Of a stretch of 56,039 bases of DNA, positions 6,709 to 48,021 are shown one piece after another. The DNA is taken from NCBI GenBank assembly GCA_003173895.1, contig PJMG01000003.1, positions 1 to 56,039 of the forward strand, read 5' to 3'. The translations under genes were made by a program, and so were the position numbers. Every line of letters starts with the position of its first letter. The first letter of the stretch is position 1. This DNA is from Candidatus Levyibacteriota bacterium. GTDB lineage: Bacteria > Patescibacteriota > Microgenomatia > Levybacterales > UBA12049. Below the pieces are notes generated by a model, which was given only the letters and a program-made list of their open reading frames with translations, ran no database searches and had not been told where the DNA came from.

Positions 6709-6871
6709 GCAGTATGCTTTCACAATTTTTGGTGTCGCTCAGGGAAGTGATTGAAATTTTAAGAAAGTATTCGGACTTCGCTAGTGGAATTTTCTCACCA
6801 ATAGTAATCTAACCTTTGAATGCCTCTTTAGAGAAAATTCCAATTCACCAAAAATTGAAAAGACAAACTGC
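6709..6871 (+). repeat. family A' nested-hairpin element (A'1)
   Basis: Outer stem gcagtatgctttcacaatttttggtg / caccaaaaattgaaaagacaaactgc; inner ggaattttctc / gagaaaattcc; tcgctcagg and ttcgctagtgg boxes. Confidence 0.8.
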
Positions 6872-15068: not shown

Positions 15069-15234
15069 AGAGTATACTTTTCGCAATTTTTCGACACGCT
15101 CGCGTACTTTGTTTGTGGAGATAGATAATATTCAAACTCGCTAATGGAATTTTCTCACCAAGGTTTGTTATAGATTTTATAATTTAATATTAAGAGAAAA
15201 TTTCAAATGTCTCAAAATTGAAAAAGCATACTCT
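15069..15234 (+). repeat. family A' nested-hairpin element (A'2)
   Basis: agagtatacttttcgcaatttttcgaca / tgtctcaaaattgaaaaagcatactct; inner ggaattttctc / gagaaaatttc; more than 90% identical to A'3 outside a variable spacer. Confidence 0.85.
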
Positions 15235-23276: not shown

Positions 23277-23523
23277 AGGGATATTTTATAATTATCGTAT
23301 TTGATTTTACAATTATAAAATTCGCAATTTAAGGAGTGAAAGTTAAATGAAGATGATAGTCAAGACTTCAACGCAGCTTAGGATTTAAAAAGTAAACATT
23401 AAGAAAATAAATGCAAATAATTAATCTTAGCTTATCTCAAGCTTAAACGGTATTTTATTTTTGACCCTTGACATAATATATTCTTATAGTCTATTATGGA
23501 GAATATAAAAGAATTATATAAGT

Positions 23524-24330
23524 ATGACAGAAGAAGTTAATAACTTAACAACTAATCCAGAAAAAAATATAAAAAGAAAAAAAGGAATATTTCCCCGATT
23601 ATCTCTTAAAAAGACTTTTGAAATCCCTAAAACAATTTATGATTTGGGGCAAGGAGAACCAGTTAGAAGACTTAAAATATTTGATTATCTAAAAAAATCT
23701 CCACAAAGTGGTCCTAGTAGAATGTTGATTACAACATCTGGAATGTATGGATTAACTATTGGTAGTTATGGAGCAGAACGTTTAACTCTTACAGAGTTAG
23801 GTAAATCGCTTGTAACAACTACTTCAAATAAAACTAAATTAAACTTATCCCTAGATATTCTTTTTAAGAATGAAATATTTAGTAAATTTATTGAATATTG
23901 GAAAGATAAAGCATTACCCTCTGATGATATAGCTCAAGATTGGTTAATTAGAAATAGCGATTTAACTAAACAAGATGCAGAAGCGTGTTGGGCTATTTTT
24001 AAAGAAAATATTTTAGATAATAATTTAACTCAAGTTTTATCTGGAAAAACTACAATTGTTTCCAAAACTGTAGCTTTGGAAACAATAGAAAACGATGAAT
24101 CCATAATTGAAACTAGTATAGAAGATAAAACAATAGTACCTCATAAAAATGAGGATATAGAAAATAAAAGAAATATTATTAATGATCCTAAACCGTTTGG
24201 CGCACAGGTTGTAGAGAGAGATTTTAAATATGGAAGAGCAAGATTGATTCTTCCTGGCGAAATGACAAAAGATGAATTAAAAAAAATACATACTTTAATA
24301 GATTCAATGGTTACTGAAGTCAATGAGTAA
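23524..24330 (+). CDS. hypothetical protein
   Basis: 268-aa ORF; no motif recognised; immediately precedes the tRNA-like gene. Confidence 0.5.
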   Translation: MTEEVNNLTTNPEKNIKRKKGIFPRLSLKKTFEIPKTIYDLGQGEPVRRLKIFDYLKKSPQSGPSRMLITTSGMYGLTIGSYGAERLTLTELGKSLVTTTSNKTKLNLSLDILFKNEIFSKFIEYWKDKALPSDDIAQDWLIRNSDLTKQDAEACWAIFKENILDNNLTQVLSGKTTIVSKTVALETIENDESIIETSIEDKTIVPHKNEDIENKRNIINDPKPFGAQVVERDFKYGRARLILPGEMTKDELKKIHTLIDSMVTEVNE

Positions 24331-24336
24331 TAACAT

Positions 24337-24453
24337 AGAGGGATGGCGCCATAAGAGGTCGAAAGGTATTAGGCTCCAAACCTAAATAGCAGAGCGAAGA
24401 ATGTAGTACATTTTGAAGTGAAGCCATCGCAGGTTCGAATCCTGCTCTCTCTA
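24337..24453 (+). tRNA. tRNA-like gene: Trp-type anticodon loop (CCA), aberrant D region, 43-nt extra arm
   Basis: Acceptor AGAGGGA/TCTCTCT (one G.U); T arm GCAGG-TTCGAAT-CCTGC; anticodon arm TTAGG-CTCCAAA-CCTAA; 117 nt overall; no canonical D stem. Confidence 0.45.
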
Positions 24454-24473
24454 CGATCGTTTATCCTATAATC

Positions 24474-24502
24474 TTGACTAAAGGAGTTTTTTATTTTATA
24501 AT
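24474..24502 (+). promoter_or_regulatory. near-consensus promoter TTGACT-17-TATAAT
   Basis: TTGACT 24474-24479, TATAAT 24497-24502; drives only a ~50-nt hairpin region. Confidence 0.45.
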
Positions 24503-24505
24503 AAA

Positions 24506-24554
24506 AGTACATTTCAAAATGTACTAACAAATGACCTCCACAAGGGGGTTTTTT
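24506..24554 (+). ncRNA. candidate ~50-nt small RNA / hairpin plus terminator
   Basis: agtacatttcaaaatgtact palindrome, then cctcc-acaa-ggggg stem and T6 run. Confidence 0.3.
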
Positions 24555-24588
24555 GTTAATGGAAATTCTATAATTCTTATTTTCCCTC

Positions 24589-24622: not shown

Positions 24623-24667
24623 GTCCTAAGGGAGTTCTCAGGGGAGCTTCTTTAGGACATTTTTTTA
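24623..24667 (+). terminator. intrinsic-terminator-like hairpin
   Basis: gtcctaag...ctttaggac stem followed by a T7 run. Confidence 0.5.
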
Positions 24668-36558: not shown

Positions 36559-36725
36559 AAGCTCATTGAAAGTACTTTTTAAACAGGCGTTCGCTAACTT
36601 TGTTTATAATTAAAATTATATTTCATCTCTCACTCGTGAAAGTTTGCTATTAGTTTAACATTGAAACATAAAATATTAAACAGCAAACTTCCAATGCTCT
36701 TTAAAGAGTACTATTCAATTCACTT
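36559..36725 (+). repeat. family A nested-hairpin element (A2)
   Basis: aagctcattgaaagtacttttt...ctcactcgtgaaagtttgct...agcaaacttcc aatgctc...; starts 2 nt after the trhO stop. Confidence 0.8.
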
Positions 36726-38817: not shown

Positions 38818-38981
38818 AAGCTCGCAGAATGTATTTTAAAAGCCGCTCGGAAACATGAATCTTAAATTAATATTAAATTGTCATTCTCGCTCGTGAAAGT
38901 TTACTACCAAAGTCAAAAAGAAATTTAAGAATATTAAACAGTAAACTTTCAATGCTGTTTAAAATACATATCTGCTCGCTC
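38818..38981 (+). repeat. family A nested-hairpin element (A3)
   Basis: Outer gcagaatgtattttaaaagc / gctgtttaaaatacatatctgc; inner tgaaagtttact / agtaaactttca; compensatory versus A1. Confidence 0.8.
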
Positions 38982-41288: not shown

Positions 41289-41427
41289 AGAGTTAGCTTT
41301 TCACAATTTTTCGACACGCTCGCTCCAAGATCGCTAATGGAATTTTCTCACCAAAGTTTGTTACTGATTTTATAACTTAATATTAAGAGAAAATTTCAAA
41401 TGTCTTAAAATTGAAAAAACTAACTCT
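41289..41427 (+). repeat. family A' nested-hairpin element (A'3) between the tkt halves
   Basis: agagttagcttttcacaatttttcgaca / tgtcttaaaattgaaaaaactaactct; inner ggaattttctc / gagaaaatttc. Confidence 0.85.
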
Positions 41428-42463: not shown

Positions 42464-42481
42464 GGGTAATATTTTGATTTC

Positions 42482-42587
42482 GGGGTCCTGCCGGTTGTTT
42501 CCCTCCCGAAGGTGCTCGCAATGGGGTTAATTCTGATGAATTAAAATGCTGCGCACCATCGAGAACCCTTCCAACAACCGTCACCCC
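42482..42587 (+). repeat. family B structured element (B4), candidate 5' leader RNA
   Basis: GGGGTCCTGCCGGTTGTT...AACAACCGTCACCCC; GGTGC/GCACC and AATTC-TGAT-GAATT inner stems; TAATAT box 9 nt upstream. Confidence 0.8.
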
Positions 42588-47824: not shown

Positions 47825-47837
47825 AATTAATTTTCAC

Positions 47838-48002
47838 GGGGTCCTGCCAATTGTTTCCTTCCCAGCAGTGCTCGTTCATGATTATTCACTTGCGCGCTGG
47901 CGGGAGCCTCTTCGAGCCGATTCGTCCTGAGCTCACGGTCGAAGGATCTGAGCCTGAGGGTTCATCCCTCAGAGTCGAATGACCTCCTACAACTGTCACC
48001 CC
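47838..48002 (+). repeat. family B structured element (B5) between def and fmt, antisense to the operon
   Basis: GGGGTCCTGCCAATTGT...ACAACTGTCACCCC; carries a B1-type module plus a nested C-like unit (gtcctgagctcacggtcgaaggatc). Confidence 0.8.
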
Positions 48003-48021
48003 TTATTTGATTCTAATTTAA

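Follow-up and report, generated by a model that had tools for sequence, protein, structure and literature searches.

We analysed contig PJMG01000003.1 (GenBank assembly GCA_003173895.1), a 56,039-nt stretch of DNA from a Candidatus Levyibacteriota bacterium of the Candidate Phyla Radiation (CPR), and refer to this whole stretch as the window. Its subject of interest is a tRNA-like RNA gene with a very long variable region, which directly follows the stop codon of an open reading frame (ORF) for a tandem winged-helix-like protein and is itself followed, about 55 nt downstream, by a predicted small RNA (sRNA) whose 5' end is complementary to that variable region. The features of the locus are collected in Table 1.

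Table 1. Features of the tRNA-like locus in the window
Feature	Position	Strand	Remarks
Promoter-like site TTGACA-18-TATTAT	23468..23497	+	11/12 matches; in front of the winged-helix ORF
Winged-helix-like ORF, 268 aa	23524..24330	+	Stop codon TAA at 24328-24330, 6 nt 5' of the element
tRNA-like RNA gene	24337..24453	+	117 nt including discriminator A24453; 111 bits on family model R1
Acceptor stem	AGAGGGA 24337-24343 / TCTCTCT 24446-24452	+	7 bp including one G.U
D region	24344-24368	+	25 nt, TGGCGCCATAAGAGGTCGAAAGGTA, between acceptor and anticodon stem
Anticodon arm	TTAGG-CTCCAAA-CCTAA 24369-24385	+	Anticodon CCA at 24376-24378
Variable region	24386-24428	+	43 nt
sRNA docking site TAGTACATTTTGAAGTG	24404..24420	+	Within variable region; reverse complement at 24510-24526
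T arm	GCAGG-TTCGAAT-CCTGC 24429-24445	+	5-bp stem, 7-nt loop
CCTATAAT box	24465..24472	+	8-mer between tRNA-like 3' end and sRNA promoter
sRNA promoter TTGACT-17-TATAAT	24474..24502	+	11/12 matches
Predicted sRNA, about 49 nt	24509..24557	+	Start inferred 7 nt after the -10 box
sRNA 5' seed CATTTCAAAATGTACTA	24510-24526	+	Complementary to variable region
sRNA intrinsic terminator	Stem 24533-24550, then T run	+	Follows A-rich linker

Much of the element is built as in canonical tRNA, with a 7-bp acceptor stem, a 5-bp T stem with the G53-C61 pair, and a 7-nt T loop carrying T54-Psi55-C56. A preliminary description of this DNA had counted the acceptor, the T arm, the anticodon arm with CCA, a 25-nt replacement of the D arm, and a 43-nt variable region, and on the sequence every one of these counts proved correct. 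The variable region has neither of the canonical forms (4-5 nt in class I tRNAs, or a stem-loop of about 10-24 nt in class II), since it lacks a conserved stem. The CCA end is not encoded, the 3' end reading ...TCTCTCT-A-CGATCG. The tRNA detectors suggested at that time as a check made no call at the locus: ARAGORN found 0 tRNAs across the whole 56-kb window, the element included, and Rfam gave no match to the element at gathering thresholds. In a sensitive local search, the best sub-threshold match of the window copy in the tRNA clan was to tRNA-Sec (21.9 bits against a cutoff of 47, E 0.054). The tRNA-Sec alignment implies a 9-bp “Sec-like” acceptor starting at 24353, which we rejected, as it pairs at 6 of 9 positions and the orthologues described below back the 24337 start. 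The predicted fold of the single sequence is no better than those of shuffled sequences (z -0.72). With such a fold and rejection by the detectors, the window locus, taken alone, could be a chance look-alike or a dead gene.

Orthologues change this picture. A homologous element follows a homologous ORF in five lineages, and the junction with the stop codon is tight in all of them: the gap is 6 nt in the window (soil metagenome); 3 nt in a set of metagenome contigs (L089, L090, L091, and L092); 3 nt in L097, a Levyibacteriota genome found by a DNA-pattern search; and 2 nt in L108, which is syntenic with the window and has ychF downstream; in L109, from marine sediment, the stop codon TAG overlaps the element as its positions 8-10. 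The module precedes ychF in the window and L108 and adjoins a two-component system in L097, so that its neighbourhoods differ; relatives of the L097 module also occur on contigs from three further groundwater or soil runs. We built a covariance model of the family, R1, from four members; L109, outside the training set, scores 22.3 bits (E 0.007). Neither R1 nor nhmmer found a copy upstream of ychF in other Levyibacteria or in the CPR loci searched. Of two DNA patterns applied to genome contigs, the first gave chance matches only and the second recovered L097; two further patterns run on metagenome contigs returned nothing or chance matches only, and two run on viral contigs nothing or ordinary phage tRNAs only. 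A protein-profile scan of genome contigs added one distant ORF homologue, L098, in which the tRNA-like element is missing.

Across the five distinct sequences, which represent five lineages only, all metagenomic, 96% of cells in the cloverleaf are paired and 15 of the 20 pairs have changes on both sides, as compared to 42-56% paired and 1-6 such pairs in slid controls. The acceptor and T helices are 100% paired across lineages, with four compensatory pairs each. This compensation indicates structural selection on all four arms, and hence that the element is not a decaying pseudogene. A GATGGC/GCCATC helix seen in the single-sequence fold was rejected, being kept in neither L097 nor L108. Judged from these sequences, the element is a member of a small conserved RNA family in Levyibacteria-like CPR bacteria. 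Comparison with relatives, which the preliminary description had proposed in search of an uninterrupted form, thus did yield a homologous element, with the long variable region in four of the five lineages and a region of 18 nt in L109.

Two of the orthologues pass the general tRNA model RF00005 (L092 at 45.2 bits and L108 at 45.8 bits, both above the gathering score of 29); ARAGORN calls neither. The window copy and L097 are rejected by the detectors because of a derived D region that they have in common, in which 4 nt are added behind position 9 and the middle pair of the D stem does not form. In the alignment to the family model, the window D region retains the GG and GAA of a Ser-type D loop, 2 of 3 D-stem pairs form, and the 4 extra nt precede the stem. 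The D stems of L089, L108, and L109 are intact; those of L089 and L108 are of the Ser type, with a 3-bp stem and the corresponding D loop, and only L109 has a 5-bp stem.

The tRNA-like body is closest to class II tRNAs of the tRNA-Ser type. The two have in common the 7/5 configuration of acceptor and T stems (found in the window, L097, L108, and L089; extending the acceptor to 8-9 bp produces mismatches in the window), the T loop TTCRAWT, U8, G18G19, and an extra region between the anticodon and T arms, and R1 cross-matches ordinary class II phage tRNAs at 41-47 bits. In contrast to class II tRNAs, the extra region in four of the lineages is about twice as long (39-46 nt) without a conserved stem-loop, the anticodon is CCA, AGG, or other but none for Ser, Leu, or Tyr, the D arm of the window and L097 carries its 4-nt insertion and mismatch, and the element is fused to a protein gene at its 3' end, with a predicted antisense sRNA as partner. 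Nor is the element a tRNA-Sec, as the window copy and L109 (32.2 bits) both fall short of the RF01852 cutoff and the window anticodon is CCA rather than UCA; no transfer-messenger RNA was found in the window by ARAGORN or Rfam.

The content of the variable region is constrained by its complementarity, over 15-20 nt, to the neighbouring predicted sRNA. Within the region itself no stem is conserved (-3.2 kcal/mol, 0 covarying pairs). In the window, the docking site matches the sRNA seed with one G.U-compatible mismatch and has no other match. Promoters equivalent to that of the window sRNA occur in L108, L089, and L109, with the hexamers kept and the spacers not, and the -10 box is TG-extended in four of the five lineages; a canonical terminator and an A-rich linker are part of the conserved sRNA unit in all lineages. 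In every lineage the complementary seed starts 8-13 nt downstream of the -10 box, which makes it the 5' end of the predicted sRNA of about 50 nt. The longest exact complement always joins the variable region and the sRNA 5' end; it measures 14-16 nt in four lineages and 10-11 nt in the two others, and the predicted duplexes of six sequences range from -22.3 to -26.5 kcal/mol with z from -3.1 to -5.9 (window, -24.0 kcal/mol and z -5.9).

The paired sequence varies by lineage (TAGTACATTTTGAA in the window, TTCGTATACTTTGAA in L108, TTCTCTGTACATTTAA in L089, and AATGTATTAACAAGTAC in L109), and its partner changes in step. RNAalifold, run unconstrained on whole modules, predicts the helix between variable region and sRNA, and in this consensus fold the long-range helix takes the place of the acceptor stem. 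For the helix alone, 98.2% of cells are paired and 7 of 14 pairs have changed on both sides, as compared to 12-57% and 0-1 pairs in slid controls. Between the window and L097, a 1-nt indel is matched on both strands of the helix, and the internal mismatches in window/L097 and L109 are G.U-compatible, which points to constraint on RNA rather than DNA. The sequence comparison thus establishes a conserved module in which both the cloverleaf and the pairing of variable region with sRNA covary, accompanied by a conserved predicted promoter and terminator.

The preliminary description had missed three features, namely the partner sRNA, the conservation of the junction to the upstream ORF, and the CCTATAAT box. 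It likened the variable region to a dispersed repeat (“family C”) and offered, as one option, a functional tRNA whose variable loop had been invaded by such a repeat. We could not reproduce the likeness: with three 16-18-nt probes spanning 24389-24428, no other copy was found within 3 mismatches, the sole match being the reverse complement at the sRNA seed. Invasion by a repeat is also contradicted by the long region in orthologues of four of the five lineages and by the complementarity to the sRNA.

The CCTATAAT box is invariant at the equivalent place in the window, L097, L108, L089, L092, and L109. No matching -35 box was found at a usable distance upstream of it; the box could be the -10 box of a second promoter, a pause site, or a protein-binding site. 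Further downstream in the window, between the sRNA terminator and ychF, lies a very strong terminator-like hairpin (24623-24658, 16-bp stem and T run). It stands outside the conserved module, having no equivalent before ychF in L108.

On balance, we lean towards a module with three parts (a winged-helix gene, a tRNA-like RNA, and an antisense sRNA), in which the sRNA would dock on the variable region. The gene for the tandem winged-helix-like protein would be transcribed together with the tRNA-like RNA, a non-canonical, class-II-type molecule (Ser-like body) that starts 2-6 nt past the stop codon or overlaps it. The parts that shape a tRNA into an L are kept (7-bp acceptor, 5-bp T stem, T loop TTCRAWT, which is TTCGAAT in the window, G18G19, and U8), so that excision from the mRNA by RNase P and the 3' tRNA-processing nuclease would be expected, and then addition of CCA. 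The separately promoted sRNA of about 50 nt would pair through its 5' end with the unstructured variable region of about 40-45 nt, over 15-20 bp, in the precursor or in the mature RNA, and to receive it may be the purpose of the enlarged “arm”. By turning a floppy region into a long duplex, it would control how the tRNA-like RNA folds, is processed, or is charged, or how stable it is, by analogy with the dedicated antisense RNAs that act on their targets in plasmid copy control and in type I toxin-antitoxin systems. Transcription, processing, pairing in vivo, and the regulatory outcome are the steps that we infer.

Several points weigh against this reading. The sequences are few and related, and shuffle controls can in such a case overstate significance. 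Homologous ORFs occur without the tRNA-like element in the sub-lineages L086, L093-L096, L110, and L111, and the proposal accounts for the role of neither the upstream protein nor the CCTATAAT box. The sRNA start is predicted from consensus hexamers only, the -35 box of L097 is below detection by the scanner, and the locus appeared in no RNA sequencing run among those searched. Instead of pairing in trans, the complementary segments could work in cis, on one read-through transcript, or as inverted repeats in DNA. Lastly, the window copy and L097 fail the general tRNA model, and with their weakened D stem and 4 extra nt these copies could be leaving tRNA function.

A less probable account, to which we nonetheless give a real minority chance, is that the tRNA-like fold serves only to recruit RNase P and the tRNA 3'-processing nuclease, thereby setting the 3' end of the winged-helix mRNA and with it mRNA stability and translation termination; the sRNA, through its pairing to the variable region, would decide the fold, hence the cut, and the excised RNA would be without function of its own. 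The tight stop-codon junction kept in all lineages fits this well, including the overlap in L109, in which a cut at the 5' end of the element would take the stop codon off the mRNA, as does the pattern of conservation, the acceptor/T “top half” and the elbow nucleotides being best conserved and the anticodon loop differing between clades. The whole-module consensus fold, which makes the long-range helix and the acceptor stem alternative structures, would supply the switch, and other ORF sub-lineages bear different, strongly structured RNAs of about 125 nt at the same position. Yet the anticodon stem compensates and the UCCAA loop is kept in three lineages, neither of which a signal for RNase P and RNase Z would need.

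There is precedent for tRNA-like signals of this kind. Plant mitochondrial t-elements are tRNA-like elements for 3'-end processing. The mascRNA of MALAT1 plays this part in a longer transcript (PMC8457004). The likeness lies in a tRNA-like fold at the transcript 3' end, where cuts by RNase P and RNase Z would free the fold and set the 3' end of the upstream RNA. Those elements are eukaryotic or organellar, without conservation of an anticodon and without a dedicated antisense RNA, whereas here a bacterial mRNA stands upstream, with its stop codon 0-6 nt away from the predicted cut site.

The anticodon loop reads CUCCAAA in the window and L108, GUCCAAU in L097, UUAGGAG in L089/L092, and CCCAUUA in L109. 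Among the lineages with a UCCAA loop the anticodon stems differ (TTAGG/CCTAA versus ACAGC/ACTGT), the window and L108 by compensatory changes, and the first acceptor pair is A1-U72 in the window, L097, and L108 and G1-C72 in L089/L092 and L109. Since xUCCAAx and A1-U72 are kept while the stem compensates, the RNA is probably still recognised through its Trp-type anticodon in the window clade, on the ribosome or by a Trp-specific partner. The Trp-type loop is, by this comparison, under selection within one clade and is not family-defining. In L089 (2869-2895, with the same sequence in L092), the UUAGGAG loop lies within TTTAGGAGGCTATTATGCGTTGA, which holds a perfect Shine-Dalgarno-like AGGAGG, 6 nt, and then ATG-CGT-TGA; this may be coincidence. 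The L089/L092 loop is clearly not a normal anticodon loop.

Alternatively, the RNA might be charged by an anticodon-blind synthetase (such as seryl-tRNA synthetase, SerRS, which reads a long variable arm) and so cause misincorporation at UGG, or, elsewhere in the family, at different codons, with the sRNA as an RNA antitoxin that neutralises it or completes the helical arm in trans. We find this doubtful. It draws on the Ser-type D arm of the orthologues, the cross-matches of R1 to ordinary class II tRNAs, the variation of the anticodon among lineages, and the position of ORF homologues in islands rich in toxin-antitoxin and restriction genes; the sections of PMC5389517 cited here add the precedent of allo-tRNAs, and of irregular tRNAs beside toxin-antitoxin loci, some of them toxic in Escherichia coli. 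But the variable region offers SerRS no helical arm, the discriminator varies (A, G, or U), A34 in L089 and C33 in L109 are both poor for decoding, and the D arm is degenerate in the window and L097. A related form of the proposal, in our view about as improbable, is a two-piece tRNA, in which the sRNA would supply in trans the missing strand of a long helical “class II arm”. It would thereby switch the RNA from inert to recognisable by an arm-reading synthetase (SerRS) or another partner, with sRNA-gated recoding or toxic mis-decoding of UGG as the outcome, and the co-transcribed winged-helix protein would belong to the same selfish or defence module.

Allo-tRNAs and irregular tRNAs are the nearest published relatives in this respect. 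As presented in the cited sections of Mukai et al. (Nucleic Acids Res 2017, PMC5389517), they are Ser- or Sec-like with long extra arms and many non-Ser anticodons, come from soil and sediment metagenomes, often stand beside toxin-antitoxin or mobile genes, and are in some cases apparently unused in translation. By the definition given there, the acceptor and T stems of an allo-tRNA are 8/4 or 9/3, and its D stem is long, as in tRNA-Sec, and capped by a tetraloop; our elements have 7/5, a Ser-type D arm (3-bp stem, large loop), and no variable helix, and do not qualify. The same sections mention neither a partner sRNA nor fusion to the 3' end of an ORF, and the hosts named in them are Clostridia, Proteobacteria, and Acidobacteria, as compared to CPR here. 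A Ser-like, class II or allo-tRNA-like species with a non-cognate anticodon, another option of the preliminary description, came closest: the Ser-type D arm of L089 and L108, acceptance of orthologues by the tRNA model, the cross-matches of R1 to class II tRNAs, and the varying anticodon speak for it, while the 7/5 stems, which are not those of allo-tRNAs, and a variable region without a helical arm of its own speak against it.

Could the element simply be the cell's tRNA-Trp? Bacterial tRNA-Trp has the discriminator G73, the short variable loop of class I, and an A1-U72 pair. The window element has the CCA anticodon in a 7-nt loop with U33 and A37, as a Trp tRNA should; its discriminator is A73 and its variable region far too long. 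A housekeeping tRNA-Trp that is unusual only in its D and variable regions and a dead tRNA pseudogene are, even taken together, quite improbable. The CUCCAAA loop and the A1-U72 pair do resemble bacterial tRNA-Trp, no other tRNA lies in the 56-kb window, and rejection of the window copy by the detectors, which also spoke for the pseudo-tRNA considered in the preliminary description, is what one would expect of a pseudogene. Against a housekeeping role, however, the orthologues in L089/L092 and L109 have other anticodon loops although the ORFs there still contain Trp codons, the element is absent at the ychF loci of other Levyibacteria, and the discriminator is wrong; against a pseudogene, compensatory evolution in all stems rules out neutral decay. 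Because the L089 and L109 loops are not of the Trp type and Trp codons are used, another tRNA-Trp must exist in those lineages, and by inference the organism of the window has another one as well. With its CCA anticodon kept in three lineages and lost in two, the element is most probably an accessory tRNA-like RNA rather than the housekeeping tRNA-Trp.

An accessory RNA with a Trp anticodon has been described in Bacillus cereus. In the parts of PMC3399842 cited here, tRNA-Other is a pseudo-tRNA that is poorly charged and found off polysomes, with a regulatory role that includes trpS1 through a T box. The resemblance consists in a tRNA-like RNA with a CCA anticodon that is not the housekeeping tRNA-Trp; tRNA-Other is of normal size, and those parts of the paper mention no giant variable region, antisense partner, or co-transcription with a protein gene. 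Rfam found no T box in the window.

The least probable reading, in our estimation a remote one, takes the docking site and the seed as recombinase inverted repeats, between which a ~90-bp inversion would flip the promoter and break or restore the tRNA-like gene: inverted repeats of 14-18 bp do flank a segment with a near-consensus promoter, and their concerted change, the matched indel included, would also be expected from recombination-driven homogenisation, but no recombinase gene lies in the module or its neighbours (window, L097, L108, and L109), the G.U-compatible mismatches persist in the window and L097 where homogenised DNA repeats would lose them, the right-hand repeat sits exactly at the 5' end of the promoter-plus-terminator unit, as an sRNA seed would, and neither joints nor the alternative orientation were seen at the shallow DNA coverage (contigs at about 3-4x).

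For the sRNA-docking module that we favour, the closest models are antisense control pairs, in which a short RNA that has its own promoter, a seed at the 5' end, and a terminator hairpin pairs with an adjacent target over 15-20 nt. The tRNA-precursor sponge 3'ETS-leuZ is a precedent for an sRNA-binding segment in a tRNA transcript. Our module resembles these pairs in its short RNA with a predicted, conserved promoter of its own, a seed, and a conserved terminator hairpin, and in the covarying complementarity of 15-20 bp to a neighbouring target; weak Rfam resemblance to ctRNA and RNAI shapes (E 0.2-0.5) is not significant. It differs in that the target is a variable region within a tRNA-like body and not an mRNA leader or external spacer, in that both RNAs are on the same strand, their complementarity arising from an inverted repeat and not from overlapping transcription, and in that it has no toxin peptide ORF: no conserved small ORF was found in the tRNA-like element, the 2-codon ATG-CGT-TGA after AGGAGG being present in L089/L092 only.

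The upstream ORF probably forms one transcript with the tRNA-like element, because a promoter-like site precedes it and no terminator-like site was found on the + strand from that promoter to 24533; between its stop codon and the element there is neither promoter nor terminator. Orthologous ORFs that carry the element encode tandem winged-helix-like proteins of about 250-290 aa. An AlphaFold2 model of the 268-aa product (mean predicted local distance difference test score 75.8, core >90) contains tandem winged-helix-like domains and a small C-terminal beta-hairpin/helix domain, and its best fold matches are DtxR/MntR and the recognition domains of FokI/BpuJI, all at E >= 0.02. The ORF belongs to no Pfam family, with weak DUF7226 matches only (13.6-14.7 bits), and nothing significant was found in Pfam, PADLOC, a PDB sequence search, or Foldseek. 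Homologues are rare, forming 15 and 12 protein clusters among 5.8 billion (homologues P0002-P0027). The last ~35 aa (24228-24330) contain the motif G-x-A-R-[LI]-[IV]-x-P...K-x-x-[ILM]-D, which is the part best shared by two ORF subfamilies that have diverged strongly (24% identity overall); to the eye it resembles an AbrB/MazE-type looped-hinge motif, a match that profile searches did not detect.

Other members of the ORF family have different downstream partners. In L095 (1975-2100; also L096) and L093 (1255-1375; also L094), RNAs of ~125 nt that are not tRNA-like directly follow the ORF stop codon; a long terminal helix closes each (z -5.4 and -4.9, respectively, versus shuffles), and neither has an Rfam match. 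The ORF family may thus be generally coupled to a 3' structured RNA. In L110 (1501-3223) and L111 (367-2071), distant winged-helix homologues are followed by an overlapping ORF of ~314 aa instead of an RNA element, next to restriction-modification methylase genes, and further homologues adjoin HicAB, DUF4258, Fic, or IS1-type genes. From such neighbours, the family appears to tend toward variable regions rich in defence or toxin-antitoxin genes.

The window itself is chromosomal, since it contains ychF, rpsF-ssb-rpsR-like genes, and proteases; a phage or plasmid origin was rejected, there being no meaningful phage matches. It is about 31% GC, its YchF is closest to that of Candidatus Levyibacteriota (67% identity), and its sequence occurs in soil metagenome runs. 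Two kinds of repeats were seen elsewhere in it. Intergenic repeats of ~100 nt form two related families (414-513, 36608-36705, and 38865-38964; 6778-6869, 15133-15234, and 41326-41427), have internal inverted repeats TCGCTNNTGNAANTTTNCTNACCAA ... AAACTTTCAATGCTGTTTAAA, and resemble miniature mobile elements or structured RNAs. They are probably the repeat “families” of the preliminary description and are unrelated to the tRNA-like variable region. GC-rich repeated blocks (1846-2242, 42481-42545, and 47837-48006; GGGGTCCTG...TTTCCCTCCC...GTGCTCGCAATGGG and TCTGAGCC.GAGGGTTCATCCCTCAGAGTCGAATGAC) stand out against the low GC of the genome, and are present in 2-4 copies that are 66-84% identical; Rfam gave no match to them at gathering thresholds, and they may be an undescribed structured RNA or leader family.

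Non-canonical tRNAs and antisense sRNAs are each well known separately; none of the systems compared above combines all three features of the module. The generic tRNA model is the only Rfam family that any member matches, and in Rfam and the literature searched we found no description of a tRNA-like RNA with a variable region that serves as a conserved docking site for a dedicated sRNA encoded next to it, nor of a bacterial tRNA-like RNA fused to the 3' end of a protein gene. Standard tRNA finders overlook the whole family, which provides a concrete, testable system for the role of accessory tRNA-like genes with “wrong” anticodons. If the pairing is true, it would represent a new way to regulate or assemble a tRNA-shaped RNA, and a rare case of paired regulatory RNAs in CPR bacteria, which are poorly understood.

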